The notes under the pieces are model-generated. The model made no database searches, was not told the DNA's origin, and was given only the letters and a program-made list of their open reading frames with translations. A stretch of 64,000 nucleotides of DNA from Escherichia coli (GTDB lineage Bacteria; Pseudomonadota; Gammaproteobacteria; Enterobacterales; Enterobacteriaceae), in NCBI GenBank assembly GCA_902500055.1, contig GCA_902500055.1_4131.1; one strand, 5' to 3'. Below, piece by piece: positions 6,285 through 47,434 of this stretch; the first letter of the stretch is position 1; every line of letters starts with the position of its first letter. A program made the translations under genes and the position numbers.

Positions 6285-6372
6285 AATTTTGTTTCCTTTT
6301 ATTGGTGGGGGAGAACTATTCTCCCCTTGATGTAAACTATTATACAGTACTGATATACTTTGTCAAATACTT

Positions 6373-18309: not shown

Positions 18310-18553
18310 TTTATTATTCCTTAGTTACCAGGGGGAACCGCTCCCCCTATGCAAAACATTATACGCGTTTAAAAACTAATTGCAAGTATTTTAATAAAAA
18401 GTATTTGAAAAATAGTTGTTGACAAGTGCATCCAGTACTGGCATAATTACTACATCAAGACGAAACAGTCACTAACCCACCGGGTGCCGAGATCCGTCTA
18501 TTAAATGATTCAGTACTGAAAAAGTAACGGGGAGTTATTATCTCCCCGCGTTG

Positions 18554-22740: not shown

Positions 22741-22875
22741 GATTTAGCCGTCTATACTTCCAGACGTGTAACCATCTAGCCGTTTAGCCGTCCAAACGTC
22801 TAGCCATCCAGCCATCCAGAAATCTAGCCGTTTAGCCGTCTAGATGGATAGCCATCTTTACTTCCAGACTTCTGG
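22741..22875. repeat. iteron-like short direct and inverted repeat cluster
   Basis: TAGCCGT/TAGCCAT heptamer about 8 times, CTAGCCGTTTAGCCGTC twice, palindrome CCATCTAG/CTAGATGG, ACTTCCAGAC twice. Confidence 0.65.
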
Positions 22876-23925
22876 AGGGCTAGACATATCTACGTCCAAA
22901 ATCCACCCAGGGTAACTACACCCAAAATCCGTCAGTACTATACCATAGATCTATCTTTTGAAAGGGAGTATTCAGTACTGCCATCATAGCCCTCACTATG
23001 TTACCCTAGGAGGATGAAGACCATCATGTAGTACTGAATACTGTTAGAGGGAATCCACCAGCTTGTGCTGGTGGCATAATGCATTAAATTAAAATCAGTA
23101 CTGACACCATTCTGTTAATATCAGTACTGTTTATATTACGAAAAAAGAGGTTATAAAAAGATGTACCACCCATAGGAGGAACTATCCTTTCAGTACTGTC
23201 TCACGACAGGAGGTAGAGTGAATGAATTGTTTGCGGCAACTCATCTCTCTATGTAGAACATTATACAGTACTGAATCATAATGTCAATAGCTTTCTTTCA
23301 TTATTCAGTACTGATATTCTTGAGAACTACCCGACTACAAACATCATTATATCCCACAAATCATAAACGTCCCAACGTAAATTTCAACTTTCGAAGATCC
23401 AACTTTTATTTCATAGGTACTCCAAAATTTTTAGGATCGAGATTTAGGATGGAGTACTAACCAACTTTTTGCTGGAGCCTCAAGGGGTAATGGAATTTTA
23501 CCCCGAAGGGTAAAAGGGTAATTGTAATTAAGGTGAAAGTAATAATTCAGTACTAATCATTGTGTGATTACTTTTGATTACATTTGATGTAATTTGCAAA
23601 ATGGAAAAGGAGCTTGGAAACTACAAAGTACGGCAGACTTCCTCTGCCTACTTAGTGGGATATCAGTACTGAATCATTCACACACATTTCCGTGCATTCT
23701 TGAGCAATCTTGTCTATACTAATCAGTACTGAATCATATATAATCATTCTGTGATTCTACGGTGCTCATATAAATGTTTATATATGATTACTTATGACTA
23801 CCTATGATTACGGGGTTTAGCCTGGGGAGAATCCTAGTGATCGCATTTGTCCAGGCTGAATTTTAACAATTCGCCTGTACATAAAGGTTGTTCACTAGGA
23901 GCTTCCCCTGTCTCTATGTGTTTAA

Positions 23926-24117
23926 TTACTTTCTATATATAAGCATTAAGATATAGTAGTACTGATTATACTGTACATTCTCTTTAATATTATAAGGGTC
24001 TATAGCAATCTCGGTACATCTGTTAAATGCATATCTATTAAATGCCAGTGGAATTATAGATCTAATCCATACTTGTTCATTTTCTTTTAGTTTACTTATA
24101 TAGAAGTTTTTATACAT
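23926..24117 (-). CDS. family B small hypervariable protein
   Basis: ORF track 63 aa; termini MYKNFYISKL...ILMLIYRK. Confidence 0.6.
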   Translation of the reverse strand: MYKNFYISKLKENEQVWIRSIIPLAFNRYAFNRCTEIAIDPYNIKENVQYNQYYYILMLIYRK

Positions 24118-24132
24118 AGTATTCTCTATTAA

Positions 24133-24315
24133 TTAATATGATAGTACTAGTGTTAGTACTGAGCACAATTGTTCTTTATAGTTCTTATGGTATATAGAAT
24201 CTTTTATGCACTCATTGAAGTGCCATAGGTATAATCTTGGGTCGCATTCTTTATATATTCTTACGGGGACGAATGTTAGTTTTCGTATATAGAATTCTTT
24301 ATGTTCTTTATTCAT
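24133..24315 (-). CDS. family B small hypervariable protein
   Basis: ORF track; MNKEHKEFYIRKL...LTLVLSY. Confidence 0.6.
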   Translation of the reverse strand: MNKEHKEFYIRKLTFVPVRIYKECDPRLYLWHFNECIKDSIYHKNYKEQLCSVLTLVLSY

Positions 24316-24316
24316 A

Positions 24317-24505
24317 TTAGTACCTGAATATAAGTAGGATTATGTTATAGTACTGGTTAGTACTGCAATGATTCTCTATACATCGATTAACAGTTATGGA
24401 ATAGCTATATCTGGCGTAAGCATTATCCAGCGGGATTTTACATTGAGCACTTAGAGAAAGTACAGTAGGTAGTGTATTCAAATAGAAGTCTTTGTAATTA
24501 TTCAT
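24317..24505 (-). CDS. family B small hypervariable protein
   Basis: ORF track; MNNYKDFYLNTLP...ILLIFRY. Confidence 0.6.
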   Translation of the reverse strand: MNNYKDFYLNTLPTVLSLSAQCKIPLDNAYARYSYSITVNRCIENHCSTNQYYNIILLIFRY

Positions 24506-24707
24506 ACAGGAATAGTATACCTATGATACCTGAGTACAGGTTAGTACTGTTACCATCTTCGTTTGCGTTTAAAGTCATTTGAATACAATTATTGTAGCAT
24601 ACTCTGCCGAAAAATGTATTAGTACTTAAAGGTGGAGTAGTCCTTAGAAACATTTGTTCTGAGGGGCTGAGGTGTTTGGAGTAGTATTCTTTATGTTCTT
24701 TATTCAT
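24498..24707 (-). CDS. family B small hypervariable protein
   Basis: ORF track; MNKEHKEYYSKHL...ILFLYE. Confidence 0.6.
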   Translation of the reverse strand: MNKEHKEYYSKHLSPSEQMFLRTTPPLSTNTFFGRVCYNNCIQMTLNANEDGNSTNLYSGIIGILFLYE

Positions 24708-24712
24708 ATTAG

Positions 24713-24898
24713 TTAGTGTCTGTATATAAGTAATAGTAAGAATACGTACTGCACTTGTTCATCTTTAGTATTGAGTACTGTACGTATTGCGTCATTAAAC
24801 AAGAATATAGTACTTGGGTCATGAGAATTTAAAGGGGTTCTGGGTACGGCATGTTTGTAGTTCCCTTTAACAAATTGTGTGTAGTATTCTCTATGCAT
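24713..24898 (-). CDS. family B small hypervariable protein
   Basis: ORF track; MHREYYTQF...LLLLIYRH. Confidence 0.6.
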   Translation of the reverse strand: MHREYYTQFVKGNYKHAVPRTPLNSHDPSTIFLFNDAIRTVLNTKDEQVQYVFLLLLIYRH

Positions 24899-24899
24899 A

Positions 24900-25085
24900 T
24901 TAGTACCTATATATTAGGGCGATAATGTAGTACAATTCATATGGAATGTAATTTGGGGTGATCGCACACTGTGTATGGTAAATGAATTGTTCGGTATTTT
25001 TCTTATCCTTGATATCTATTGGGATTAGTGGTATAAGCATTTGGGAGTTTAGATCGAGATGGCTTAAGTAGAATTCTTTATGCAT
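24900..25085 (-). CDS. family B small hypervariable protein
   Basis: ORF track; MHKEFYLSHL...IIALIYRY. Confidence 0.6.
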   Translation of the reverse strand: MHKEFYLSHLDLNSQMLIPLIPIDIKDKKNTEQFIYHTQCAITPNYIPYELYYIIALIYRY

Positions 25086-25094
25086 ATTGTTCTT

Positions 25095-25283
25095 TTAGAA
25101 TACGAAAGCTAGGTACAGGGTATGATACAGTACTCGATGATAGCTATCAAAATCTAGTATACATGCTTTAGTGCACATAGTAAAGTACACTTTATCGTTT
25201 TGTGCAATGATACCGCGAGGTTTATCTAATAGATTAGTACTGAGGTACATTGGGAAATATTTTGTGTAGTATTCTTTATGCAT
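25095..25283 (-). CDS. family B small hypervariable protein
   Basis: ORF track; start trimmed to Met16 (MHKEYYTKYF). Confidence 0.6.
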   Translation of the reverse strand: MHKEYYTKYFPMYLSTNLLDKPRGIIAQNDKVYFTMCTKACILDFDSYHRVLYHTLYLAFVF

Positions 25284-25284
25284 A

Positions 25285-25467
25285 TTAGTACCTGAATATA
25301 AGTAGGATAGTGTTATATAGCTGGTCATAACTACTACTATTTTCTATACTTCGTTCTATGCAGTTATTGAATCCCAGTACTGCCAAATCGTTATCCATAG
25401 GGACTTTGTATCTGGCGTAGTGTTCAAAAATGCTGGGGAGAAATTGTGTGTAGTATTCTTTGTGCAT
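25285..25467 (-). CDS. family B small hypervariable protein
   Basis: ORF track; MHKEYYTQFLP...ILLIFRY. Confidence 0.6.
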   Translation of the reverse strand: MHKEYYTQFLPSIFEHYARYKVPMDNDLAVLGFNNCIERSIENSSSYDQLYNTILLIFRY

Positions 25468-25468
25468 A

Positions 25469-25660
25469 TTAGTACCTATATATTAGTAAAAGGATGTGAT
25501 ACAGTACTCGATTATAGTCTTCAATATATATCGAGGATTTAGTGCACTTAATGAAATAGTCTTTTTCGTAGTCTTTTTCTATACTCAATTGTTTTGTTGG
25601 TACAAGGTGTTGGAGATACATTGGGAGTTTCTCTATGTAGTATTCTTTGTGGTTATTCAT
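25469..25660 (-). CDS. family B small hypervariable protein
   Basis: ORF track; MNNHKEYYIEKLP...LLLIYRY. Confidence 0.6.
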   Translation of the reverse strand: MNNHKEYYIEKLPMYLQHLVPTKQLSIEKDYEKDYFIKCTKSSIYIEDYNRVLYHILLLIYRY

Positions 25661-25668
25661 ATTATGTG

Positions 25669-25848
25669 TTATTTCGTGAAAACAAGGGTTAGTACTGCAT
25701 AGTACAAGTCATACGTATCTTTAGGGTTAATAGCACCTTTAATACATTCTTTCATTACTTCATTATAGATAATTTTAGTACTGAATGTATTGGATGTTAC
25801 TATATCGGAATTAAGGTACGAGAGGTAGAATTCTTTATAAGTATTCAT
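25669..25848 (-). CDS. family B small hypervariable protein (59 aa, below ORF-track cutoff)
   Basis: Manual translation MNTYKEFYLSYL...YYAVLTLVFTK. Confidence 0.5.
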   Translation of the reverse strand: MNTYKEFYLSYLNSDIVTSNTFSTKIIYNEVMKECIKGAINPKDTYDLYYAVLTLVFTK

Positions 25849-25849
25849 A

Positions 25850-26032
25850 TTAGTACCTGAATGTTAGCATTACTACGTAGTACAGCATATATGGATTATC
25901 ATCGTATATGAGCGTGTACTTAGTACATTGTTGGAACATTATCTTTGCGTGATCTTTGATACCCAATGCAACGTTTGGTATATGGTGTTGTAGATGCATT
26001 GGGATTTTATCTTTGTAGTATTCTTTATACAT
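25850..26032 (-). CDS. family B small hypervariable protein
   Basis: ORF track; start trimmed to Met22 (MYKEYYKDKIP). Confidence 0.6.
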   Translation of the reverse strand: MYKEYYKDKIPMHLQHHIPNVALGIKDHAKIMFQQCTKYTLIYDDNPYMLYYVVMLTFRY

Positions 26033-26684
26033 AGTTTGAAATATACGTAATGAGGTGATGAAATTTCTTATCAGTACTGATAAGTTCCTGTACATGTTTT
26101 GTTAGTTTGTACGCGTTTTTATAGAGTTCTGGATTATCGATTACAGTACTGTACATGAATTCTTCTTCTGGTGTTAATTCTTTGTTTTGTAGTTCTTTGA
26201 GGAATTGCAGTACTGTATCAGTTTCGTTAGTACGTTGCTTTTGGAAGAAGTGCATGTTATCGTGTATTTTTTCTGAACCCATGCAGTACATATCGCCGAT
26301 TTGGAATTGTGCAGTACTGATATCATGGGTGCTATTACAATTCCCGAAGAAGTATACATTCCCGAAAGATAGAATTATAGTGCACGGGATATTATCCATG
26401 TGTATATAGATAGATGCATTCTTTAGTGCTTTTGTGCTGGTATTAGTACTCAATACTTTTAAATCAGTATGATAGATATTAATAAAAGCAAGAGCTATAT
26501 TATTTTTCTTCAAGTACGATTTGAGGTTCTTAGATACGAGAACATTTCTGGATTTTTTCTTTTTATTTCGTTTCTTTAGTACATTAGGGTGATACGTATA
26601 TGCAGATGTAATAGATTCTGCTTGAATACTGTTGAGGTACTTAAAGTGCTTAAGGTATTGTTTGCTGTGTGCATTAAGTTTCAT
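26025..26684 (-). CDS. hypothetical protein (219 aa) embedded in family B array
   Basis: ORF track; long ORF in AT-rich DNA; no family B motifs. Confidence 0.55.
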   Translation of the reverse strand: MKLNAHSKQYLKHFKYLNSIQAESITSAYTYHPNVLKKRNKKKKSRNVLVSKNLKSYLKKNNIALAFINIYHTDLKVLSTNTSTKALKNASIYIHMDNIPCTIILSFGNVYFFGNCNSTHDISTAQFQIGDMYCMGSEKIHDNMHFFQKQRTNETDTVLQFLKELQNKELTPEEEFMYSTVIDNPELYKNAYKLTKHVQELISTDKKFHHLITYISNYV

Positions 26685-26694
26685 TTGGTTTCCT

Positions 26695-26874
26695 TTATAC
26701 AGATGCTAGTGCGAGGATTTCCCTGAAGGGATTATCTTTTGTTAGTGCGTGATGAATGCAGCTATTGAGATTAATATTTTTAGTACTGTTAGTTGCCAGG
26801 TTGTAGTACTTCACGAAGGTGTCGTACATGAAACGGTCTTTAATGCTTATGTGTTCTATATAGTATTCTTGCAT
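26695..26874 (-). CDS. family B-like small protein
   Basis: ORF track; start trimmed to Met26 (MQEYYIEHIS). Confidence 0.5.
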   Translation of the reverse strand: MQEYYIEHISIKDRFMYDTFVKYYNLATNSTKNINLNSCIHHALTKDNPFREILALASV

Positions 26875-26882
26875 ATTATTCC

Positions 26883-27062
26883 TTACATAGAGATGAGTTT
26901 CAGTACTTCTCTGTACGTGTACTTTTCGTTTTGTGCTTCTACTGTACATGATAGAAAGTATCGTTTTTTATCTCTTTTGTTCCCGACTGTGTAGTACCTT
27001 TGGAATTTATTATAGTTGTATCTATCTTTGTGCTGAAGTTTATAGATATAGAATTCTTGCAT
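26883..27062 (-). CDS. family B-like small protein (59 aa, below ORF-track cutoff)
   Basis: Manual translation MQEFYIYKLQHKDRY...EVLKLISM. Confidence 0.5.
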   Translation of the reverse strand: MQEFYIYKLQHKDRYNYNKFQRYYTVGNKRDKKRYFLSCTVEAQNEKYTYREVLKLISM

Positions 27063-27070
27063 AGAGTACC

Positions 27071-27256
27071 TTAGATAGAGATTAGTTTCAGTACTTCAAT
27101 ATATGTGCGGTACTCTGCTTTAATTAAATTTGTACACACTGTAAGGGAATTTCTTTGTATAAGTTTATTGCCGCTTTTATACGCATTTCTCCACACATAG
27201 AGATGAGATCTTTCTGGCATAGATAGTTTATTTGTATAGTACTCAAATGTATTCAT
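27071..27256 (-). CDS. family B-like small protein
   Basis: ORF track; start trimmed to Met8 (MNTFEYYTNKL). Confidence 0.55.
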   Translation of the reverse strand: MNTFEYYTNKLSMPERSHLYVWRNAYKSGNKLIQRNSLTVCTNLIKAEYRTYIEVLKLISI

Positions 27257-27266
27257 AGTATTCTCT

Positions 27267-27452
27267 TTACATATCAATAAGTTTCAGTACTGCTCTGTAC
27301 GTGTACTTAGTTGTTAGTGTTTCTTTTATAGCAGTACTGAAGTAATGTTGTTTGTCCCTTATACTACCGCGTTTGTAGTACCATACATGGGAGTTGTGGG
27401 TGTACTTGTCCCTGTCGGATAGATTTTGGTAATAGTATAATATATGATTCAT
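27267..27452 (-). CDS. family B-like small protein
   Basis: ORF track; MNHILYYYQNL...AVLKLIDM. Confidence 0.55.
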   Translation of the reverse strand: MNHILYYYQNLSDRDKYTHNSHVWYYKRGSIRDKQHYFSTAIKETLTTKYTYRAVLKLIDM

Positions 27453-27661
27453 GGTAATGTAATTAGCCTTATTATGTTAAAGTACTCGGTTCCTGGTACA
27501 CCTTGTAGAATATTATCAACTACATTTTCTTGGTGCAGGATTAATACATTCGGTGCGGTTCTTTTAAGGTTTTTTAAAGTACTGTATTCTTGTTTAAGGA
27601 TGAACTGTACATCTTTAGGGAGAATATCTAAGTAGTACTGGTGTATGTTCATAGTTTTCAT
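27449..27661 (-). CDS. family B-like small protein
   Basis: ORF track; MKTMNIHQYYLDILP... Confidence 0.55.
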   Translation of the reverse strand: MKTMNIHQYYLDILPKDVQFILKQEYSTLKNLKRTAPNVLILHQENVVDNILQGVPGTEYFNIIRLITLP

Positions 27662-27672
27662 ATAGTACTCTT

Positions 27673-27858
27673 TTAGAACTTAAAGATGAGGTTCATGATA
27701 GATAAGTACTTAGTTTCAGGAAATTGATGTTCTATTGCATAACGTGTCTCCAGTCTGAAGTCAAATTTATAAAAGGGACTATTCATATCCATAGGTTCAT
27801 TGGGAAATGAATCTCTGTATTGTTTGTGCAGCTTACTACAGTAGAATTCTTTATACAT
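27673..27858 (-). CDS. family B-like small protein
   Basis: ORF track; MYKEFYCSKL...IMNLIFKF. Confidence 0.55.
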   Translation of the reverse strand: MYKEFYCSKLHKQYRDSFPNEPMDMNSPFYKFDFRLETRYAIEHQFPETKYLSIMNLIFKF

Positions 27859-27859
27859 A

Positions 27860-28072
27860 TTAGTGCTCGATTAAAAGGGTTAGGATGTAATAGTATTGCA
27901 TACTTTCTACCCCTTGTACAGCATTTCTTATTTTATTATTCCTGTACGAGTTCAAGAGTTTAGGACAATGTTTGAAGTTTATATAATTATTTTGTGTATA
28001 CAGTAGGCTTTCTCGTAGACCTTTTGTTGGTAGTGCATCGATGTAGTACTGTTCAATGTTCATAGTGTTCAT
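27860..28072 (-). CDS. family B-like small protein
   Basis: ORF track; MNTMNIEQYYIDALP... Confidence 0.55.
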   Translation of the reverse strand: MNTMNIEQYYIDALPTKGLRESLLYTQNNYINFKHCPKLLNSYRNNKIRNAVQGVESMQYYYILTLLIEH

Positions 28073-28296
28073 AGAGCTACCAGTACTAAGATTTTTGATA
28101 ATTGTTTATTGCTATCCCCGCAGATGGTGCTGTGTAAAATACTCACTACAAGGGTATCAAGTGCATTGTTCAGCATAAGGTTACATCCAGTACTGTTATG
28201 TGTTTTTAGCTCTATTAGCCACGAACAATCCGCGAGAAACTTACCGTACTCTAGTTCATTTAGAGTATTAATGTAGTACTTAAGTGTAGCTGTCAT
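28069..28296 (-). CDS. family B-like small protein (first gene of minus array)
   Basis: ORF track; start trimmed to Met19 (MTATLKYYINTL). Confidence 0.5.
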   Translation of the reverse strand: MTATLKYYINTLNELEYGKFLADCSWLIELKTHNSTGCNLMLNNALDTLVVSILHSTICGDSNKQLSKILVLVAL

Positions 28297-28398
28297 GTGT
28301 AGTTCTCCTTGTATTCCTTCTATAGTACACCAGTACTGAAAGGATGTCAAGGGTTTTGTTTATGGGGTAAATATGATATAATGAATAAAGGAGGAAAT

Positions 28399-29304
28399 AT
28401 GTTACCTTTTGTTAGAATGTTTGATTATGGGAATGAAGCTCCATTACCAGCCCCAAATGGTGGTATACGAACTCAATTTACCACATCACCAGTACCTTCA
28501 GCACGAAATAACTTTGGTTATACGTATGATGCATCAAGAAATACTGCTTATATATTTGGTGGTATAATGAATACTTCGAACCAGGATAATCAGTTATGGA
28601 GTTTTAATTTAAATTCTAGAATATGGGTACAATTATCATCACCACCAGTATCCACCTATGGAAGTGCATTGTGTGCCTATCAAGGAAAAATATATTTGTT
28701 CGGTGGTTTAGGTGCAGCGAATGTTGCTAATAATAATTTTTATGTATATGACATAAGCTCTGATACATGGACACTGAATAATACAAGTGTTGGCAAACCT
28801 AACCAGGCAGTATATAGTAAGATGATTACTACAGGGGATAAGATATATTTGTGGGGTTCACCGTCTAATACTGCATTATATAGTTATACGCCGAGTACTA
28901 ATACATGGGCATCGTTAGGTACTACTGGGAATACAACAAACAATGGTGGTGGTGATATGTGCACTGATGGTACTTACATATATTTTACAGGACAAGGATC
29001 TACTCCTGCACAAAAATATCACATAGAGAGTGCGGTTTGGTCAAGAATGGCAGCAGTTGGTGGAGCTAACCCTAGTAAGATAATTTACAATAGATATGAC
29101 AAAGGTATATATGCAGTATCTTATGGTGCATTAAATTTATTAAAATATGATGCCGAGCAAAACAAATGGATACCATTAGCTATCAATACAACGTTGAGTA
29201 ATAGTACTGGTGCATTATTTGGCTCTAATAATAGTGCTGAAATATTTTACGTACTTGGTTACGACAACGGGACACGTGTTAATACGCAGTATGTTTTTAA
29301 ATAA
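28399..29304 (+). CDS. family C member 1: conserved N-terminal peptide + Kelch-like beta-propeller
   Basis: AGGAGGAAAT-ATG; N-terminus MLPFVRMFDYGNEAP; six blades with IY.FGG/W pattern. Confidence 0.8.
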   Translation: MLPFVRMFDYGNEAPLPAPNGGIRTQFTTSPVPSARNNFGYTYDASRNTAYIFGGIMNTSNQDNQLWSFNLNSRIWVQLSSPPVSTYGSALCAYQGKIYLFGGLGAANVANNNFYVYDISSDTWTLNNTSVGKPNQAVYSKMITTGDKIYLWGSPSNTALYSYTPSTNTWASLGTTGNTTNNGGGDMCTDGTYIYFTGQGSTPAQKYHIESAVWSRMAAVGGANPSKIIYNRYDKGIYAVSYGALNLLKYDAEQNKWIPLAINTTLSNSTGALFGSNNSAEIFYVLGYDNGTRVNTQYVFK

Positions 29305-29316
29305 TTTGGAGGAAAT

Positions 29317-30466
29317 ATGTTACCTTTTGTAAGAATGTTTGATTATGGGAATGAAGCACCTACCAACTCTGGGCGTTTTAAAATATATTCCAGTGATTCT
29401 ATGTATCTTCATGATACTTATACTGATAAGTTGTATGCATCTTCTGCGACGAATTGGGGTACTGGTACAGGTGTAGCATCGAGTAAATTTATTCTTTGTG
29501 CGGAGAATGTTAAACGAGTTCTATTGGAAGATAACAGTAGTGATTGTCAATTGTATGAAGAGAAAGGTACTGGAAAAGTTTTTATCACTGGTAACACGAA
29601 GGCATTCACTGGTGTAACTGATAGAAAAACTTTGTGGACGGACTGTACTACGTGGATAACATCAAGTGGTATTAATGTTTCTGATATAAAATACATGAGT
29701 AGTTTTTATGATATGAAGGTGAATTTGATAACAAACGATGGTACATTGTATTGTTGTGGAACTAACAATATATCGAACATATCATCATTTGGTGATGGCA
29801 CAAACATTAATTCTTTTAACACATTCAAAAGAGTAGATACTATAACTTCGGTTAAAAAGGCAGTTGGTAACATTTATTTGCGAGAAGATAATACTTTATG
29901 GGGTTGTGGTTTTAACTATTACTACCAGTTGGGTACTGGTAATCAAACTTCGATTACTGGGGTGACGATGATTTCTTCGGATGTTATAGATTTTGATGTA
30001 AGTTATCAGAGTACATTTTTTTATCAAATCGGATAATAATTTGTACGCATGTGGGAAGCAGTACGGAGCACAATATGGTAATGAATTTGGCACAGGTGGA
30101 ACATCTACTAGTACTGATATTCAATACAAGACTCCTACATTATTGAGTACAGGGGTATATGGTGTATATGCATGTGTTGCTAACATGGCATCACATATTG
30201 TCAAAGCAGATGAAGTTCTATATGCTTCTGGATCGAATGGGTTTGGGCAATTAGGTGTTGGTAATAATAATAATCAGTACTCCTATACTCCTTCATATAC
30301 TTCGTTTAATACTTCGTGTAATTTGGTACGCACTCCATCTGGTTCACTTATACTTACTGACACTTCGAAGTTATATTATTCGGGTGCTTCATTTGTAGTA
30401 ATGGGTGGTAGTGCTGGACAGAACGTTCTTAATTATACCGAAGTCGATATGTCATTTGTGCAGTAA
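29317..30466 (+). pseudogene. family C member 2, interrupted by frameshift at T7 tract (pseudogene, phase-variable or sequencing error)
   Basis: ORF 29317-30036 (MLPFVRMFDYGNEAP...) continues in +1 frame as 30041-30466 with RCC1-like repeats; T7 run at 30016-30022; a T6 run would fuse them into about 383 aa. Confidence 0.6.
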
Positions 30467-30475
30467 ATTAATATA

Positions 30476-30502
30476 CCAGTACTTGATACTGGCTTTTTTT
30501 GA
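30476..30502 (+). terminator. family C cassette terminator hairpin
   Basis: CCAGTACTTGATACTGG followed by T7. Confidence 0.6.
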
Positions 30503-30534
30503 TTAAATATAGTATAATGAATAAAGGAGGAAAT

Positions 30535-31644
30535 ATGTTACCTTTTGTAAGAATGGTTAAGTACGGGAATATTGCACCAGTACCGAAAAAAATAAAGAAA
30601 GTTATAGCAGGATATGATAATTTATATGTACTATATGGTGATGGTTCGCTATATGGTTGTGGAATCAATAACTATCAACAGTTAAATATTGATGGAACTG
30701 CTACACAAAATAATTGGGTACTAATTACCAATGGTGTTAGTAATGCATGGGCTGGTGGATACAATATTTTATATTTGAAAGAAGATAAATTTATAATGCA
30801 CGGAACTAATGTCTCATTAGGTTTAGGAAATACTACAATTCCATTAGGTGGAGTAGATGTAACTTCTTCATTCCCAGATATCTCTAATATTAAAATGATA
30901 TCCATTGGTTTTGATTCAATGCACTATGTTAGTGCTGATGGTACAACTGTATATGGAAGAGGTATGAACACAAATGGTTCTGTTGGTTCAGGTAGTACTT
31001 ACTCACAGAGTACTTTCACTTCAGTACTGAATAATGGAACTAATCAGGTTATTGATATATTTGGTAACGTTAATAATACAGTGCTTCTAACATCGAATGG
31101 TGAGCTTCGAGCATGTGGGACAAGTGCTTATGGTTCTATAGGAAATGAAACTGGTAAGTGGACATCGTTTGGTTTAAAATTATCTGGCACTAAAATAATG
31201 GGTGGTAATGGGTATAGTACGCTTGCATATACAAATTCGGGAATGTACCACTCAGGGTGGCAGTTAAATGGGGAACTAGGAAATGGTTTAGATACTAACG
31301 TACAGGTATATCCATTTCAATTTAACTCTAAAACGATAGATAGCAAGATAGATAAAATTGCCAAATCATCATCTGGGTCATATGTTAACATGTACTCAAC
31401 AACAGAAGGAAAGATATATACGACAGGTTCGTTTGGTAAAAACGGGTCAACTACTGCATTGAATTTGTTCACCAATACATTAACACTTATAAATTACAAT
31501 CCAGATACCGCCTCGTTGTATACGTGCACAAACTTCAGTGTTGTGTATGATGGTAATGAAACTATTGCTGTAAGTGGTAGTCCTACATATGTACCAGGGG
31601 GCGTTGCCGCTAATAGATGGACTACAATTCCATTACCCAAGTAA
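30535..31644 (+). CDS. family C member 3: N-terminal peptide + RCC1-like beta-propeller
   Basis: TATAAT, AGGAGG, MLPFVRMVKYGN; repeats LYGCGINNYQQL, VYGRGMNTNGSVG. Confidence 0.8.
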   Translation: MLPFVRMVKYGNIAPVPKKIKKVIAGYDNLYVLYGDGSLYGCGINNYQQLNIDGTATQNNWVLITNGVSNAWAGGYNILYLKEDKFIMHGTNVSLGLGNTTIPLGGVDVTSSFPDISNIKMISIGFDSMHYVSADGTTVYGRGMNTNGSVGSGSTYSQSTFTSVLNNGTNQVIDIFGNVNNTVLLTSNGELRACGTSAYGSIGNETGKWTSFGLKLSGTKIMGGNGYSTLAYTNSGMYHSGWQLNGELGNGLDTNVQVYPFQFNSKTIDSKIDKIAKSSSGSYVNMYSTTEGKIYTTGSFGKNGSTTALNLFTNTLTLINYNPDTASLYTCTNFSVVYDGNETIAVSGSPTYVPGGVAANRWTTIPLPK

Positions 31645-31650
31645 TACTAT

Positions 31651-31678
31651 GCCAGTACTTGATACTGGCTTTTTTTGA
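31651..31678 (+). terminator. family C cassette terminator hairpin
   Basis: GCCAGTACTTGATACTGGC followed by T-run. Confidence 0.6.
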
Positions 31679-31711
31679 TTAAATATAGTATAATGAATAA
31701 AGGAGGGAATT

Positions 31712-32839
31712 ATGTTACCTTTTGTTAGAATGTTTGATTATGGGAATATAATCGAAGTTAATAATATAAAGAAAAGTGTTGTTAGTTACACTCTTGAAAT
31801 GTTTCTAATGCAAGATGGCACTGTATATGCACACGGTGAAGATTCAAACTATAATGCGGGTTTAAGTACAAAGTTTGTATCGTTAGGAGCAGTTCAACAA
31901 ATCACAACTGAAGTTGATGACTTATGGTTAGGATCGTTTTCCGTTGTTATTAAAGGTGATAAAATATATGGTTCAGGTTCAACATATGCATTCACGAATT
32001 CTAATACTTTCCAACAAGGATATACTGACTGGGCTGTGTATTTCACTGGTATAGATGTTACCCAAATTAAAAAAATGTTATGTGGTTATACAGCATTTAC
32101 ATTAATGAAAGACGGAACACTTTATGGAAGAGGATGGAATCGAAGTGGTTCATTAGGTTTAGGACATAAAAATTATGTTTCAGCGTGGACTGTACTTGAC
32201 ACTAATGTGGATAATATATTTGGCGGTTACCTTGGCGATACATTGTTTAAGATTAAAAACGATGGAACTGTATATGGTTCAGGTTCAAATAACAGCTTTC
32301 AAGTTAAAGCAACATCGGGTGATGCAACCACATTTGTTCCGTTGTTTGATGATATATCTTATGATATAAAATGCAGTTTTGTTTCTGGTGTTGGTTTTGT
32401 AATGATAACATCTGATAATAAAATATATGCAACTGGAACTACTTTTGCTGGTAGTGGTGCACATAGTAAAGTTTTTGATGTTGGTTTTACTATAGGTGAT
32501 ATGAGTAATATATATCATCCTGATTCGTTGGACTATTCGACTAGTGTTGTATTTTTAATTAATGCAGATACAAACAAACTAATAGCAACTGGGCATACCC
32601 CATTTACGGGAAGTAGTTCAAGTTCCCTTCCATATTTTACAGCATTTCAAGAATTCAATTTTACATCGTTCAATTCGAATACACGATATAGTGGGTCTTT
32701 ATACTGGAATACATTTTACGAAGGTAATAATGTATGGATGAATGGATATAATCCTAAAAATACGGGTGGAAAGAATTTCTCATTGTGTTCAATACCGTTA
32801 GATACTATTATTACTAAGCAAATTGATTTACCTTTTTGA
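31712..32839 (+). CDS. family C member 4: N-terminal peptide + RCC1-like beta-propeller
   Basis: MLPFVRMFDYGN; repeats LYGRGWNRSGSLGLG. Confidence 0.8.
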   Translation: MLPFVRMFDYGNIIEVNNIKKSVVSYTLEMFLMQDGTVYAHGEDSNYNAGLSTKFVSLGAVQQITTEVDDLWLGSFSVVIKGDKIYGSGSTYAFTNSNTFQQGYTDWAVYFTGIDVTQIKKMLCGYTAFTLMKDGTLYGRGWNRSGSLGLGHKNYVSAWTVLDTNVDNIFGGYLGDTLFKIKNDGTVYGSGSNNSFQVKATSGDATTFVPLFDDISYDIKCSFVSGVGFVMITSDNKIYATGTTFAGSGAHSKVFDVGFTIGDMSNIYHPDSLDYSTSVVFLINADTNKLIATGHTPFTGSSSSSLPYFTAFQEFNFTSFNSNTRYSGSLYWNTFYEGNNVWMNGYNPKNTGGKNFSLCSIPLDTIITKQIDLPF

Positions 32840-32846
32840 ATACTAT

Positions 32847-32877
32847 GCCAGTACTCAAGTACTGGCTTTTATTTTTG
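32847..32877 (+). terminator. family C cassette terminator hairpin
   Basis: GCCAGTACTCAAGTACTGGC followed by T-run. Confidence 0.6.
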
Positions 32878-32911
32878 ATTAAATATAGTATAATGAATAA
32901 AGGAGGGAAAT

Positions 32912-34105
32912 ATGTTACCTTTTGCTAGAATGGTTAAATACGGGAATAAACTGCCTATTCCTGATCCAGTTGAGTTCACTGATGTTTTACAGCAACATTA
33001 TACTAATGCTATGTATCTACATAAGCCCACGAATACACTATACGGTTATGGTGGTAATAACTTGAGCCAATTAGGTCTAGGGAATCGATCGGCAGTTTCT
33101 ACTTTTACAGTACTGGCAACGCACTGTGCAGCCTTTTGGTTAGGCGTTCATGGATCATTGATGATTGACTTGGATAATAGAATATATTTCACAGGGAATA
33201 CAGTAGCATTCCCCGATTATGGAGATGCAACTCCAGTTAATGGTTATTTTAGAACATGGACTGATGTTACTGCCGCATTTAACAAAATAAATGTACACGC
33301 TAATTTAATCAAGAGTGTACATATAGGTGAAAGTACTAGAATATTACTACACGATGGAAGAGTCGTTGTTTGTGGTAAAAATGCAAATGCCGAATGTGGA
33401 ACAGGTAACCAAAATCCCATTCCAGTACTAACAGTTGTTACTGGTATGGGTGAAGTTTCTCAATTGGCGTGTTCATTACAGGGTACGCACTATCTCAAAA
33501 CAAATAAAGAAGCATGGTTTTGTGGTAAGGATAACTTTGGTGAAAGTGGTGGTGGGACTAGCTCATACGTTTTTACTAATAAATTAATACGAACCAACGT
33601 CGATTATATAAGTACTACTTATGATGTTACCTGGTGGTTTACTGCCGGTAGGGTGTACTGGAGTGGTAGAAACAATTCTGGACAAGCTGGGAATGGTACT
33701 ACTTCAACTACAAACCAATTAACTACAGTTCAGAATTCACAGGTTATAGTGAATATTAGTGATGGTTTCCTGTGTCCTAGTAATATGGGTAACTCAACAA
33801 TTGGTGCACCTATGGCTCAATACCCATCATATGTCAGGAGTGCAGGCATCAATACATATGGTCAAGAAGGGACGGGAAATACAACAATAATTACTTCGTG
33901 GGGGGCGTTTTCTTTAAGTGCGATACAGGGTGGATATGACAATGTTCTTATGGCATCCAAAGACTGGTCCAGAACAATAATTATAACTAAAGATTATAAA
34001 TTATATGCATGTGGGGGCTTTAACGGTTCAGGTAGTAAATTACCGGATGGTACTTACTTAATTAAAACATTAACATTAATGCCAACGCAGTTATGGCAAT
34101 CATAG
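32912..34105 (+). CDS. family C member 5: N-terminal peptide + RCC1-like beta-propeller
   Basis: MLPFARMVKYGN; repeats LYGYGGNNLSQLGLGN, VYWSGRNNSGQAGNG. Confidence 0.8.
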   Translation: MLPFARMVKYGNKLPIPDPVEFTDVLQQHYTNAMYLHKPTNTLYGYGGNNLSQLGLGNRSAVSTFTVLATHCAAFWLGVHGSLMIDLDNRIYFTGNTVAFPDYGDATPVNGYFRTWTDVTAAFNKINVHANLIKSVHIGESTRILLHDGRVVVCGKNANAECGTGNQNPIPVLTVVTGMGEVSQLACSLQGTHYLKTNKEAWFCGKDNFGESGGGTSSYVFTNKLIRTNVDYISTTYDVTWWFTAGRVYWSGRNNSGQAGNGTTSTTNQLTTVQNSQVIVNISDGFLCPSNMGNSTIGAPMAQYPSYVRSAGINTYGQEGTGNTTIITSWGAFSLSAIQGGYDNVLMASKDWSRTIIITKDYKLYACGGFNGSGSKLPDGTYLIKTLTLMPTQLWQS

Positions 34106-34114
34106 GAGAAAATC

Positions 34115-35224
34115 ATGTTACCTTTTGTTAGAATGTTTGATTATGGGAATATCACACCTGGTCCTAAAAATATAATTAAAGTTGGTGCTTCTACACAGGG
34201 TCAATTCTTATTGACAGATTCACATGATTTATATTACATAGGTAGAAATCAAGGTGGTGAATCTGGAAATGGAAATACCAACACAGTATCCTCATGGATA
34301 TTAGTAAGTACAGATGTTTCTAATTTTTTCGTGGGTGATCGTACACTTGTTATTATTAAAAATGATAATACGATATGGTCATCAGGTCAAACGTACTGGT
34401 TCACATCTTCCACAACTACTTCTTACAGTACTGTATTAGTTGATAGAACCAGTTGGTTCACAAATGCAATACCAGTAAGTGAAATTGCTAATATTGTATG
34501 TACATATGGTTTAATATTTGTACTTAGCACTAATTCAGTACTCTATGGTGCAGGGGCTAATGGATATCGTGGTGCTTTAGGTATTGGTTCATCATCAATT
34601 TACACATTAACTCAATGTGCTACTAATGTGCGTAAAGTAATGACGAATTCAAATGACAGTATGTATATTACATTAGATAATAAGTTATATAGTTCTGGGT
34701 GGAATGACAGGGGTCAGCATGGCACGGGGAACCGAACACAAATTAACACGTGGGGATTACGTAGTACTGGAGTAATAGATGCAGCTATTGGTGGACATAC
34801 ACTCAATTACTATAATGGTACATCATATTTCACATGTGGTACAACTCCAAACTTTCTTAGTTCAGATTCAACTACATTCAAAGCAGTTCCTGTAAGTACT
34901 TTACCTAATAATTCACCTTTGTTTATGACAAATTCAGAGGCAACAAGCACGGCTACGCAAATTATATTAACTAGTGCATATCAGAAAGGTATTGGGGGAA
35001 ACCGTGGTTTGGGATTAAACAATTCTCAAACGGGTGCTATCTATAGTGCTGCTAATTTACAATTACCTGTAGAAGTTAGTGAGATTAGTGATGTTGCTTT
35101 TAGTGACGGATTAACATCATTATTAACCAAAGACGGGAATGTATATAGTACTGGATCGTATTACGCCATTCCAGGTGCAAGTGCAGATGTTGCAGTCTTT
35201 ACTAAAATTGATTTACCAAAATAA
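34115..35224 (+). CDS. family C member 6: N-terminal peptide + RCC1-like beta-propeller
   Basis: MLPFVRMFDYGN; follows member 5 with no terminator (co-transcribed); repeats LYSSGWNDRGQHGTGN. Confidence 0.8.
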   Translation: MLPFVRMFDYGNITPGPKNIIKVGASTQGQFLLTDSHDLYYIGRNQGGESGNGNTNTVSSWILVSTDVSNFFVGDRTLVIIKNDNTIWSSGQTYWFTSSTTTSYSTVLVDRTSWFTNAIPVSEIANIVCTYGLIFVLSTNSVLYGAGANGYRGALGIGSSSIYTLTQCATNVRKVMTNSNDSMYITLDNKLYSSGWNDRGQHGTGNRTQINTWGLRSTGVIDAAIGGHTLNYYNGTSYFTCGTTPNFLSSDSTTFKAVPVSTLPNNSPLFMTNSEATSTATQIILTSAYQKGIGGNRGLGLNNSQTGAIYSAANLQLPVEVSEISDVAFSDGLTSLLTKDGNVYSTGSYYAIPGASADVAVFTKIDLPK

Positions 35225-35230
35225 CATAAT

Positions 35231-35260
35231 GCCAGTACTCAAGTACTGGCATTTCTTTTT
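35231..35260 (+). terminator. family C cassette terminator hairpin
   Basis: GCCAGTACTCAAGTACTGGC followed by T-rich run. Confidence 0.6.
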
Positions 35261-35295
35261 GGGGTAAATATAGTATAATGAATAAAGGAGGAATT

Positions 35296-44526: not shown

Positions 44527-44889
44527 TTATTTCCTCATACCCAAACGTTGGTGGATTTCAGAGATCTTTATATACAATAGTACCACAAGGTGCAGTACTA
44601 AACAACATATAATTACGGCTAATACCAATGAACATATCATAAGACCGAAGGTTATTGTATTCAAAGAGGATGTGAACAGTCCAATTATTAATACAATAAA
44701 ACCAAAATTGAATACTGTACCCAACACAGTATATGCTGGACTATATCTCTTTTGGATTACATCATATATATTTGATAATGGTCGCTTATGGAAGTACTTC
44801 CCAATGCACACGAATGCATTCAGTGAGAAGATAAATGTATACGCCATTACTAGTAATTGACCAACGAAAGATAATTCTATCCCGTTCAT
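44527..44889 (-). CDS. family D small polytopic membrane protein
   Basis: ORF track; start trimmed to Met22; hydrophobic helices. Confidence 0.6.
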   Translation of the reverse strand: MNGIELSFVGQLLVMAYTFIFSLNAFVCIGKYFHKRPLSNIYDVIQKRYSPAYTVLGTVFNFGFIVLIIGLFTSSLNTITFGLMICSLVLAVIICCLVLHLVVLLYIKISEIHQRLGMRK

Positions 44890-44890
44890 A

Positions 44891-45259
44891 CTAACCTCGT
44901 TTACGTTTTTTAATTGTACTGTGCATCTTTTCGAAATAGGGAACCAAAACATATTGAACAGTTTGCCAGATAACCATTAGATTATGCACTGCACCACCAA
45001 GGATACCAAACACTAGAACAATAATTGCCATAATAGGATCACCGTCTACCATACCCCATTTAAAGATATGTAAAATCCAAGCAATGACTAGACAAAATAA
45101 ACTAAGCCAATACGTAATGAAAAATCCGGCTTGTAGTTCATAATCATCAGCAATTTCATCGTATACCGTTTCTAAAAATGATACACAAAAGAATTTACCA
45201 ATTATAACCACAGTACTAATAAACAACATAGCAGTTAAGATAATAAGAGCAATTTCCAT
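44891..45259 (-). CDS. family D small polytopic membrane protein
   Basis: ORF track 122 aa; C-terminal basic tail KKRKRG. Confidence 0.6.
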   Translation of the reverse strand: MEIALIILTAMLFISTVVIIGKFFCVSFLETVYDEIADDYELQAGFFITYWLSLFCLVIAWILHIFKWGMVDGDPIMAIIVLVFGILGGAVHNLMVIWQTVQYVLVPYFEKMHSTIKKRKRG

Positions 45260-45573
45260 TACATCCCTCGTTTACGCTTTTGATTGCGTCTAAATTCTGT
45301 TAGTCCACGGCTAATCGGCGGCATCAGACTACATAAAAAAGTAACAGTTGTTGGTAGTAACATCAAGTCAATCATTGCAGTGTTATCTGGTGGATCAAAA
45401 ACCAAAAAATACACACAAGAAACACTAATAATGGTTGAACCGATAAAAGGAATACAAAATTCTTTTATCTGTTTTTCAACATAATCAAACATCTTGAGTA
45501 CAAATAAAAATCCAACCCAACACATAATGAAATAGAATGAATACAACGTGTAAATCAATGTTACTATATCCAT
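45259..45573 (-). CDS. family D small polytopic membrane protein
   Basis: ORF track 104 aa; C-terminal tail RRNQKRKRGM. Confidence 0.6.
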   Translation of the reverse strand: MDIVTLIYTLYSFYFIMCWVGFLFVLKMFDYVEKQIKEFCIPFIGSTIISVSCVYFLVFDPPDNTAMIDLMLLPTTVTFLCSLMPPISRGLTEFRRNQKRKRGM

Positions 45574-45911
45574 TAGTACCTCGCATCAGGAACTTTAGCA
45601 CGTAACTTATGAACGACTGGGAACAACAACAAACTTACATATGCAATAGTTGAACCCCAATAGAATACTAATACAATTGGTTCACCATTAGAACGGAAAC
45701 CTCTACTAATCATTGAGTAGTGAATAATAGGCATAATCATCGCCATACCAAACCATGCGTGTAATTTTAATTGCAGCATGTTATCAGCGATGAATACTGA
45801 AATTGGTCGTTTAAAGAACCACATCAGAAAGTAGAATCCAGCACTAATAATATAGTACATGGTACTAACTTTCATATACCACGGCAGTAAATCAATAAAG
45901 TACTCCATCAT
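45573..45911 (-). CDS. family D small polytopic membrane protein
   Basis: ORF track 112 aa; FFKRP after TM, C-terminal KVPDARY. Confidence 0.6.
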   Translation of the reverse strand: MMEYFIDLLPWYMKVSTMYYIISAGFYFLMWFFKRPISVFIADNMLQLKLHAWFGMAMIMPIIHYSMISRGFRSNGEPIVLVFYWGSTIAYVSLLLFPVVHKLRAKVPDARY

Positions 45912-46255
45912 TCCTCCGGTATCTTATTTCGAAGTTCAATCATAACACAACAAATTTTAATGGTCAATATAAAAGTTAAACATATCATCCCAAGTGTGCC
46001 GTAAACTGCGGAAAAAGCTGGTAGTACCTTTCCTGTGAGTGTTGCTACAATACATGCAATCAATGTTGATGCAAACAACGATTGATTAATGGCAGAATTC
46101 ATAAAATCTTCACCATTACGTTTATAGAATTGTCGTTTAAAATACCATCCTAGAAACATAACTACCCAAAATGATACATAAGTTGTTAGAATAATCCCTG
46201 CAAGTGAATGTGCAACTGAACTACTCCTTAAAAACTCAAGATAAGCTTCAAACAT
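45908..46255 (-). CDS. family D small polytopic membrane protein
   Basis: ORF track 115 aa; YFKRQ, C-terminal RNKIPEE. Confidence 0.6.
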   Translation of the reverse strand: MFEAYLEFLRSSSVAHSLAGIILTTYVSFWVVMFLGWYFKRQFYKRNGEDFMNSAINQSLFASTLIACIVATLTGKVLPAFSAVYGTLGMICLTFILTIKICCVMIELRNKIPEE

Positions 46256-46593
46256 TAGAAGTCTCCGCGAATTTTATCTCTACCATGAATAATGAGATGG
46301 ATTAAGTATACAACTAACCAAATGAACAACCCAAAGAATACAATATATTGTGAGATTGAGTTCAAGTGAGGATTGGCACAATAAATTAAGTGTGCCATAA
46401 GACCAACAATTGCAAACAAACCTTGAACTAGTGTGTAAAGAACTAGTGATGAATTCCTTACTGGATACAGTTTAAAAACAATTTTCTTTTTAAAATACCA
46501 CAGTACTACAACCAGTGCATGATAAAAGAAAAAACCAAACAGATAAATCAAAGTAATACTAATCATTGTATCTGAATTAAAAAACTCAAGCAT
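46255..46593 (-). CDS. family D small polytopic membrane protein
   Basis: ORF track 112 aa; YFKKK after TM. Confidence 0.6.
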   Translation of the reverse strand: MLEFFNSDTMISITLIYLFGFFFYHALVVVLWYFKKKIVFKLYPVRNSSLVLYTLVQGLFAIVGLMAHLIYCANPHLNSISQYIVFFGLFIWLVVYLIHLIIHGRDKIRGDF

Positions 46594-46660: not shown

Positions 46661-47434
46661 TTAAATTTTCTCAAGGAACATATTCTCTGCCATTGATTCC
46701 CAATCGTATGGGAATTTATTATACAAACCAGCGATCAGTACTGGCATACGCAGTGATGGACTACGCAAACGTTCTTCGTTGTTCAGCATCCAATTCAGGA
46801 TTGCTTTACAACCATTTTTGTTAACACCATTGTTTTCAAGGATGTTAGTTTTGTTCATGATGTTCTCAATGTGAATCATCACTTCTTCGTTGGTGAACAG
46901 TTGCAGGTCAACAAAGATACTACGAGTGATCAGTGCATCGATGTGTGGTGCTAAGCTGCTTTTACCTTTAGCAATCTGTGACAGGTTTTTGTTAGTCAGA
47001 AAGATTACTTTACCACGGAATTCAAACTGCTTAGGGATACCCTGCTGTTCCAGGTACTTAGCAGAAGTCGCGTAAGAAACTACACGCTTCTCTGACGTAT
47101 CCAACACAGCTTTAAGCAAATCAATATTAGTCTCGTCAGAGAAGATATCAACGTCATCAAGTAACAGTACTGATGCGGCATGACGTGAACGATACAGTGC
47201 TTCGTACAGACCCAAAGTAGTTACTTTACCACTGATTTTCTTGTAGTCGATTTCAAAGTTATCATCAGCTTTCTGTAACCGTTGGTCAACGTTATAAGTT
47301 TTACCAACACCACCTTTACCTGATACGATCAGAGAGTTGATAGAGTTAGCTTGTGTATCAAGAAGGCATTCCAGTGCAGCCATCATGCTATTGAAGTTTT
47401 TTTCGATTTGGATTGCTTTCTCTTGACGGGTCAT
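46661..47434 (-). CDS. P-loop ATPase with deviant Walker A (ParA/MinD-like)
   Basis: SGKGGVGKT Walker A and VLLLDDVD Walker B. Confidence 0.6.
   Translation of the reverse strand: MTRQEKAIQIEKNFNSMMAALECLLDTQANSINSLIVSGKGGVGKTYNVDQRLQKADDNFEIDYKKISGKVTTLGLYEALYRSRHAASVLLLDDVDIFSDETNIDLLKAVLDTSEKRVVSYATSAKYLEQQGIPKQFEFRGKVIFLTNKNLSQIAKGKSSLAPHIDALITRSIFVDLQLFTNEEVMIHIENIMNKTNILENNGVNKNGCKAILNWMLNNEERLRSPSLRMPVLIAGLYNKFPYDWESMAENMFLEKI

Follow-up and report, generated by a model that had tools for sequence, protein, structure and literature searches.

An array of small genes beside the terminal repeat of an Asteriusvirus jumbo coliphage: a possible battery of early, host-directed proteins

Layout of the array and relationships among its genes

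The DNA analysed here (the window) is a stretch of 64,000 nucleotides from an assembly deposited under Escherichia coli (GCA_902500055.1, contig GCA_902500055.1_4131.1), and the subject of this report is an array of small genes on its minus strand between positions 23926 and 28296. The region is filled by 19 open reading frames (ORFs) of 59-75 amino acids (aa) with intergenic gaps of -8 to +20 nt, and all 19 were found where the original prediction, made from the sequence without database searches, had placed tandem minus-strand genes packed end to end. ORFs of at least 55 aa that begin with ATG cover 97% of the region on one strand, whereas 300 shuffled sequences reached 7% on average and 26% at most. 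The array is split by a 219-aa ORF at 26025-26684, also on the minus strand, which was absent from the earlier description.

The numbering m01 to m19 runs against transcription, such that m19 is the first gene and m01 the last. The gene m19 (28069-28296, 75 aa), which comes first in each of the five arrays compared, represents sequence type IV. It is followed by m18 (27860-28072), m17 (27673-27858) and m16 (27449-27661); m18 and m16 are of type III and are each 70 aa long, or 67 aa from the second ATG, and m17 (61 aa) is of type I. Four type II genes come next: m15 (27267-27452) and m14 (27071-27256), both of which encode basic proteins of 61 aa (pI 9.6); m13 (26883-27062, 59 aa), the basic product of which (charge +6.6) was modelled with AlphaFold; and m12 (26695-26874, 59 aa), the start of which matches the annotation of phage E9.1. 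Downstream of the 219-aa ORF, all of the genes are of type I, namely m11 (25850-26032, 60 aa), m10 (25669-25848, 59 aa), a cassette that is missing in phages 121Q and Sharanji, m09 (25469-25660, 63 aa), m08 (25285-25467, 60 aa), for which a second AlphaFold model was made, m07 (25095-25283, 62 aa), m06 (24900-25085, 61 aa), m05 (24713-24898, 61 aa), m04 (24498-24707, 69 aa) and m03 (24317-24505, 62 aa), which are jointly absent in 121Q, m02 (24133-24315, 60 aa) and the final gene, m01 (23926-24117, 63 aa). The 219-aa ORF occurs in every phage compared and is unrelated to the small-protein family; it matched phrog_29152 (E=1.9e-113), which carries no function, and no Pfam family. A search of the window with the family hidden Markov model (HMM) detected no further members, with the exception of a partial and probably spurious match at 47083-47220 (E=1.5e-4).

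The window belongs to an Asteriusvirus jumbo coliphage of the 121Q/PBECO4 group. The 6.5 kb surrounding the array is 91-96% identical to about 37 Asteriusvirus jumbo coliphages in GenBank, among them BF17, vB_Ec-M-J, 121Q, PBECO4, G17, Sharanji and fEgEco12. In the relatives (about 36 GenBank phages with 16-22 copies), the ORFs are annotated as "hypothetical", often incompletely, examples being gp249-gp265 of 121Q and the 21 genes of E9.1. The family is already in public annotations and in PHROGs, without a name or a function, and full-text literature searches uncovered no paper that describes the array. A tblastn search with m09 returned 36 phage records and no other source, 32 of the records being from Escherichia phages and 4 from Salmonella phages, and a profile search of 1.84 billion representative proteins gave 32 clusters, all of 44-75 aa. 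The named members checked among these clusters were all from Asteriusvirus-type Escherichia phages, the remainder being unnamed metagenome or assembly sequences. These searches indicate that the small-protein family is confined to Asteriusvirus.

The 19 ORFs have a mean pairwise identity of only 21%. One Tyr is invariant across all of them, and a Leu of the C-terminal helix is present in 95%. The shared termini and central motif that had been described are real but not universal, because K-E-(Y/F)-Y is found in 58-68% of the ORFs, and 63% carry the F, and 63% the C, of the central motif. The proposal that all of the ORFs form a single family held for the greater part of the array. Twelve of the 19, which by sequence type are m01-m11 and m17 (type I), matched phrog_11711 at E<=0.01 (best 5e-26) over profile positions 1-62 of 62, and are thus the same family at full length, whereas the other seven (types II-IV) did not match it and lie outside any PHROG; their link to the family comes only from profile-profile comparison. 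Type II (m12-m15) could be aligned with type I from end to end (hhalign P=1.2e-6, probability 91%). Type III (m16 and m18) was linked weakly, with P=4.8e-4 in the comparison with type II and P=3.5e-3 in that with type I, and type IV (m19) showed no significant similarity to any other type (P>=0.015). The type I HMM alone failed to separate the other types from composition-matched shuffled decoys. Ancient paralogs account for at least 16 of the 19 small products.

The profile search of phage databases that had been suggested recovered the family as phrog_11711, to which no function is attached. A match to a well-characterised protein family, named in the original prediction as a refutation, was sought in Pfam, NCBIfam, PADLOC and PDB sequences, and none was found. 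Six members tested against Pfam gave no match; the best hits in NCBIfam (E=0.031) and PADLOC (E=0.0027), each with one member, were not significant, and the best hit in a profile search of PDB sequences had E=0.97. A fold search in BFVD matched only the small-protein family itself. The window contains no Rfam family match and no tRNA.

Selection, cassette turnover and the conserved gene ends

To judge whether the array encodes proteins, we turned to comparisons among relatives. All of the array frames are open in five other phages. The ratio of nonsynonymous to synonymous substitution rates (dN/dS) was 0.30-0.35 against four phages, and the differences at codon positions 1, 2 and 3 numbered 155, 95 and 220, respectively. 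The neighbouring genes had dN/dS values of 0.08-0.22 in the better-sampled comparisons, and the array is therefore under somewhat relaxed but clearly purifying selection. On this evolutionary evidence, the array ORFs are real coding genes, as had been claimed.

The original prediction had also described a hypervariable core. The core does differ between paralogs, but in other respects the description does not hold, because orthologs are on average 92% identical (different orthogroups, 27%; five phages) and the dN/dS of the variable middle is 0.39, the first 12 codons having a value of 0.22 and the last 15 one of 0.31. Ongoing hypervariation, of the kind produced by diversity-generating retroelements, was considered and rejected: orthologs are conserved, the dS of the middle is similar to that of the ends, and the differences consist of whole cassettes. 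At the conserved core columns, synonymous codons agree no more than codon usage predicts (F, 36 of 75; C, 34 of 72; the invariant Y, 87 of 171), which argues that the paralogs are old and that each has a fixed, selected sequence.

Copy number differs among phages: 121Q has 16 copies, Sharanji 17, the window 19, E9.1 21 and BF17 22. Across five phages, we distinguished 26 orthogroups in collinear order, with cassettes present or absent and one moved to another position; the cassettes are drawn from a pool of about 30 types. The clearest case is a 392-bp indel that removes m03 and m04 in 121Q. Both of its ends lie in an identical 28-nt repeat, ACTAATATGAATAAAGAACATAAAGAAT, which consists of the junction and first codons of two cassettes, and the genes flanking the indel are intact. 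Junction repeats of 26-69 nt recur every ~190 nt along the array. The variation between phages is the gain and loss of whole cassettes by recombination in the conserved gene ends.

The ends carry further signals. Seven type I junctions have the form (TTC/TAT) AGG TAC TAA T ATG, in which the AGG, encoding the Arg of the C-terminal "(Y/F)RY", lies 7 nt before the next start codon; from its position, this AGG may act like a Shine-Dalgarno element for the next gene. The codons after the ATG are fixed even synonymously (AAA, 56 of 56; GAA, 67 of 79; TAC/TTC, 87 of 87). Stop and start codons are 1-10 nt apart, and translation would therefore proceed by coupling. Conservation of the ends has three overlapping causes, namely the fold, translation signals and recombination homology. 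In the mechanism that we envision, the ends would form part of the protein fold, carry the ribosome-binding and initiation signals, and supply homology for unequal recombination, which would add, delete and move whole cassettes and so give rise to the 16-22 copies seen per phage.

Promoter, operon and position at the terminal repeat

A sigma-70-type promoter on the minus strand at 28322-28350 (TTGACA, a 17-nt spacer with CAGTACTG, and TACTAT; score 10/12) is the sole consensus-grade promoter facing the array. It is followed by a 5' leader at 28297-28321 (minus strand) with the Shine-Dalgarno sequence AAGGAGAA ahead of the m19 ATG; promoter and ribosome-binding sequence alike are conserved across six Asteriusvirus genomes. 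A search for internal sigma-70 promoters and terminators found no consensus-grade sites within the array; one 10/12 site is present at 25150-25122. The first terminator-like site 3' of the array is a G+C-rich hairpin, GGCAGAGGAAGTCTGCC, at 23632-23652 (minus strand), 274 bp downstream. From this arrangement, we predict that the 19 small genes and the 219-aa gene form one polycistronic operon, read leftwards from 28350-28322.

The array promoter has the AGTACT-in-spacer architecture of the promoters of terminal-repeat genes (TTGACA-N9-AGTACTG-TATAAT). Perfect 12/12 copies of that consensus have minus-strand -35 elements starting at 6366, 6857, 9709, 12814, 13127, 23287, 49681 and 60029, and members of the same stereotyped class with CATAAT (11/12) have plus-strand -35 elements starting at 18419 and 20345. 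The stereotyped promoters are often followed by (A/G)TTTACATCAAGGGGAGAA and, farther on, TTCTCCCC, which form a conserved 5'-leader hairpin without a match in Rfam.

The boundaries mapped in fEgEco12 place a direct terminal repeat of ~20.6 kb at 3056-23652 of the window, and the array ends 274 bp from the inner boundary. The hairpin GGCAGAGGAAGTCTGCC lies exactly on this boundary, given that base 353741 of fEgEco12, the first base of its right repeat, aligns to position 23652. In fEgEco12, the direct terminal repeats are 20,993 bp long, as confirmed by restriction digests (PMC13070987), and the inner repeat boundary is the physical genome end. The adjoining segment 21971-23925 contains no ORF of 60 aa or more, 14 copies of CAGTACTG and perfect promoters on both strands; a tandem repeat with an 8-nt period is located at 22749-22900.

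Phages of this group have no RNA polymerase of their own and have only a sigma factor (PMC11895373). In the related phage PA5oct, RNA-seq identified the terminal-repeat genes as early genes (PMC7318152), and in CBB, another relative, RpoD-like promoters are concentrated in a region of small ORFs beside the repeat (PMC5259590). The T4-like late-promoter word TATAAATA, a relative of which is the proposed late promoter of CBB and GAP32 (PMC5259590), occurs once in the window compared with 13.35 expected occurrences, an avoidance that may mark the window as a non-late region. From the promoter class, the position beside the terminal repeat, the lack of a phage polymerase and the analogy with PA5oct and CBB, we infer that the array is transcribed early by the host RNA polymerase.

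Predicted fold and possible function

The structure prediction that had been proposed was carried out for one member each of types I and II, and both gave a confident helical bundle. The m08 model (type I; predicted local distance difference test (pLDDT) 93.4, predicted template modelling score (pTM) 0.78) has helices at residues 3-7, 12-20, 27-42 and 46-58, and the m13 model (type II; pLDDT 95.0, pTM 0.77) at 2-7, 11-26, 29-43 and 49-58. The models support a common fold for types I and II, a bundle of ~7 kDa with one short and three longer helices in the same order. The conserved columns are 84-100% hydrophobic or aromatic; they map to helices 1 and 4 and, in helix 3, to F33, C36 and I41. The core would be built by the Y/F-Y pair, L11, F33, C36, I41 and the Y..IL.LI motif, and the residues predicted to be exposed on helices 2 and 3 and in the loops differ between paralogs yet are constant within each ortholog. 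The proteins are rich in Tyr (11%, twice the window background) and poor in Gly (1.6%, one fifth of the background), and their pI values range from 5.5 to 9.6. A membrane span needs a hydrophobic stretch of about 18 or more residues. We rejected a C-terminal transmembrane anchor, as the hydrophobic run is ~9-10 residues long (e.g. VFLLLLIY) and, in the models, packs as a helix within the bundle.

One possible hypothesis for the array as a whole is that it encodes an early battery of small, single-domain binders, directed at different host proteins for takeover of the cell or against its defences. The small proteins would be made by the host RNA polymerase early in infection, and each would bind a different host protein, with the result either of takeover or of inhibition of defences that vary among strains. 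This hypothesis draws together the conserved core, the surfaces that are specific to each paralog and constant among orthologs, the probably early expression, the turnover of cassettes and the restriction to one clade. We hold it tentatively, and as a whole it falls a little short of probable. It is the best hypothesis that we have for the array. The original prediction had offered small binders as one idea, and that idea agrees with a lineage-restricted family that has a hydrophobic scaffold, divergent surfaces, an early-type promoter, a location beside the terminal repeat and no characterised match; binding, targets and timing are the parts that stay hypothetical. A more specific version, unlikely as it stands, is that the phage genome encodes a natural library of binders in this array, about 20 affibody-like helical proteins (from the pool of about 30) that would each neutralise a different defence or host factor of E. 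coli or Salmonella. The gene ends would then serve as adaptors for recombination and translation, and co-infecting phages could exchange cassettes while the operon stays intact.

Several observations weigh against the binder hypothesis. The searches made revealed no resemblance to known anti-defence or host-takeover proteins, although no dedicated anti-defence profile library was among those searched. An arms race at a binding surface predicts a raised dN/dS, and the variable middle stays below 1, at 0.39. The array makes heavy use of codons that E. coli seldom uses (ATA, 45%; CTA, 33%; AGA plus AGG, 73%), which would be surprising in abundant immediate-early proteins. Among the 19 ORFs, three (m16, m18 and m19) are linked to the family weakly or not at all. 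High pLDDT values are common in short helical sequences, and both models were built from a paralog-only alignment. Finally, we found no Asteriusvirus transcriptome in the literature, and the early timing rests on promoter type and analogy.

Other explanations place the partners of the small proteins within the phage itself. The array diverges from a family of 13 beta-propeller paralogs on the plus strand (28399-43468), which lies outside the array operon, and the back-to-back arrangement across about 100 bp that had been predicted was found as a 103-bp spacer (28297-28399). The small proteins might be chaperones, adaptors or inhibitors of these adjacent propeller virion proteins, the two families forming one functional module. 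In favour of such a module, the divergent spacer shows conservation across six phages, each family has undergone expansion and has conserved termini, and their copy numbers rise together (22 small genes and ~16 propellers, 19 and 13, and 16 and ~12 in three genomes). However, three genomes do not make a correlation, larger genomes may simply expand both families, and the cassettes show no one-to-one pairing. The promoter classes also differ, being TTGACA-type for the array and TAAATAT followed by TGATATAAT without a -35 element for the propellers. Virions of phage phAPEC6 contain propellers, and no array member is among the 62 virion proteins reported for it (PMC7247149 Table 1), although mass spectrometry can miss small proteins. 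We think that the module is improbable. The "one island" of the original prediction stands as a description of position and not as a functional unit, because the families have different types of promoter and, as far as is known, different destinations. Alternatively, the small proteins could be the phage's own nucleic-acid-binding regulators or architectural proteins, acting, for example, on AGTACT sites or early mRNAs. Type II proteins are strongly basic (pI 9.6, charge +4.6 to +6.6), AGTACT exceeds expectation 13-fold in the window and reaches its highest density in the array, where it occupies all three frames, and it is present in early promoters and terminator stems. A precedent is provided by the ~35 zinc ribbons of phage G, which Iyer et al. 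proposed to be transcription factors or structural DNA-binding proteins (PMC7824862). Yet most members are neutral or acidic (pI 5.5-8.8), no DNA-binding family was matched in Pfam or NCBIfam, and the models showed no similarity to a helix-turn-helix or other known DNA-binding fold. Nineteen specificities for one motif would also be unparsimonious, and we regard such a role as no better than a long shot.

A further scenario is that the array encodes internal virion proteins that are ejected with the DNA, as in the case of the T4 internal proteins (IPs), with the N-terminus as a capsid-targeting signal and the body countering host nucleases. A conserved N-terminal decapeptide on otherwise differing small proteins is what one would expect of such a signal, and the cassette polymorphism resembles that of the polymorphic T-even IP locus. 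In the small-protein models, however, the N-terminal helix lies confidently within the fold (pLDDT 89-94), the C-terminus is conserved equally, and the array promoter is of the sigma-70 type rather than the late type. The synonymous conservation of the N-terminal codons (K, 56 of 56; Y/F, 87 of 87) points to an initiation signal in the RNA rather than a peptide signal. None of the proteins is among those of the phAPEC6 virion, in which a protein as small as 4.66 kDa was detected (PMC7247149). Packaging of the array proteins therefore seems more doubtful still. At the other extreme, the array might consist of regulatory or recombination repeats that act at the DNA level, the ORFs between them being incidental or decaying duplicates. 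The 26-69-nt junction repeats spaced ~190 nt apart, the conservation of the first codons at synonymous sites and the omission of several ORFs from many GenBank annotations (e.g. Sharanji and BF17) would fit that description. Against it, all 19 frames are open here and in five other phages, purifying selection extends over the full length, including the non-repeated middle (dN/dS 0.39), indels take out whole genes in frame, and the predicted fold is consistent and confident. A non-coding array of repeats and spacers was rejected on the open frames, the dN/dS values and the in-frame cassette indels, and we give the DNA-level explanation hardly any credence.

We classify the array as a lineage-specific expansion of small, probably early phage genes that is unusual in its number of genes. 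Modules for host takeover or pre-early functions lie in or beside the terminal repeats of other phages, as in gp37-60 of SPO1, the pre-early genes of T5 and the 'Tre' genes of Staphylococcus phage K. Such modules, including those of PA5oct (PMC7318152) and CBB (PMC5259590), resemble the array in their many small genes without assigned function, strong sigma-70-type promoters used by the host RNA polymerase, and position in or beside the terminal repeat. They differ in that their genes are mostly unrelated, whereas the array consists of 16-19 paralogs of one fold in one coupled operon. The T-even IP locus has small genes with a common N-terminal segment and unrelated bodies, and exchanges cassettes between related phages; its products are packaged and proteolytically processed, and IPI* of T4 is an anti-restriction protein. 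Cassette exchange is common to that locus and the array, but the array proteins were not found in phAPEC6 virions, their C-terminus is conserved too, and their N-terminus is within the fold. Bacillus phage G, with its ~35 zinc-ribbon paralogs (PMC7824862), offers another tandem expansion of a small domain in one viral lineage. The array domain differs from it in being an all-helical orphan fold without metal ligands, in a different group of phages. The multigene families (MGF) of African swine fever virus (ASFV), a large eukaryotic DNA virus, are lineage-limited expansions in which copy number varies by isolate, and such expansions are usually read as signs of host-virus conflict. The array resembles them in its lineage-limited expansion and in the copy-number differences between isolates.

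If the array encodes early host-directed binders, then about 20 ready-made inhibitors, all built on one 60-residue scaffold, would come from a single operon of 4.4 kb; each inhibitor could serve to probe an E. coli defence system or essential process, and the natural presence and absence of cassettes among sequenced phages would offer a direct route to mapping their targets. The array would also be a clear bacterial-virus counterpart to the multigene families that large eukaryotic DNA viruses carry. The small, Gly-poor, Tyr-rich and confidently predicted scaffold may prove attractive for binder engineering. Should the family be dispensable, it is simply another orphan family of a jumbo phage.

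Neighbouring genes and other features of the window

The beta-propeller paralogs share the N-terminus MLPFVRMFDYGN. The first of their genes (28399-29304) is Kelch-type, and three others tested are RCC1-like. Propeller relatives in phAPEC6 are virion proteins and have been interpreted as DNA-condensation proteins (PMC7247149 Table 1); surface or fibre proteins would be another fit for exchangeable propellers with a common anchor. Upstream sequences were read for five propeller genes, and three of these, including the first, carry an element without a -35 hexamer, (G)TAAATAT(G/A)(A/G)TATAATGAATAAAGGAGG. Two of the three also have a terminator whose stem is formed by inverted AGTACT copies. Terminator-like hairpins between propeller genes at 31651-31669 and 35231-35250 (plus strand) consist of GCCAGTACT and AGTACTGGC followed by a T-run, and both lie directly upstream of the -35-less element TAAATATAGTATAATGAATAAAGGAGG.

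Outside the array itself, the most surprising observation was the over-representation of the palindrome AGTACT and of CAGTACTG. AGTACT occurs 296 times in the window compared with ~22 expected, and CAGTACTG 72 times compared with ~1 expected (~70-fold), with never more than 4 copies in shuffled sequences. Neither is found at 1-2000, and both are densest at 4000-28000. AGTACT is located in promoter spacers, terminator stems and coding DNA in all three frames, with 8.4 copies per kb in the array and 3.0 in the other ORFs. It could be the binding site of an abundant phage protein; full-text literature searches returned no paper linking the motif to jumbo phages.

In base composition, the array and the 219-aa gene within it stand apart from all other genes in the window, and they favour the codons TAC, CTA, ATA and AGA/AGG. 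GC skew at the third codon position, on the coding strand, is -0.33 in the array and -0.32 in the 219-aa gene, compared with -0.12 to +0.12 elsewhere in the window. We considered this reversed skew as a replication signal and rejected it, as the skew mainly reflects amino-acid composition (1.6% Gly; few Ala, Val and Asp) together with a preference for C- and A-ending codons. The GC skew of the window as a whole switches at ~23423, near the terminal-repeat boundary and not at the strand switch at 28300. Two other runs are made up of closely packed genes of similar size. One, on the minus strand at 1-2800, is the counterpart of g057-g070 of fEgEco12 (52-85 aa, many with 4-nt overlaps) just outside the terminal repeat, and the other, at 44154-46593 (minus strand), comprises seven tightly packed ORFs of 104-141 aa. 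Both runs may be further families of paralogs.

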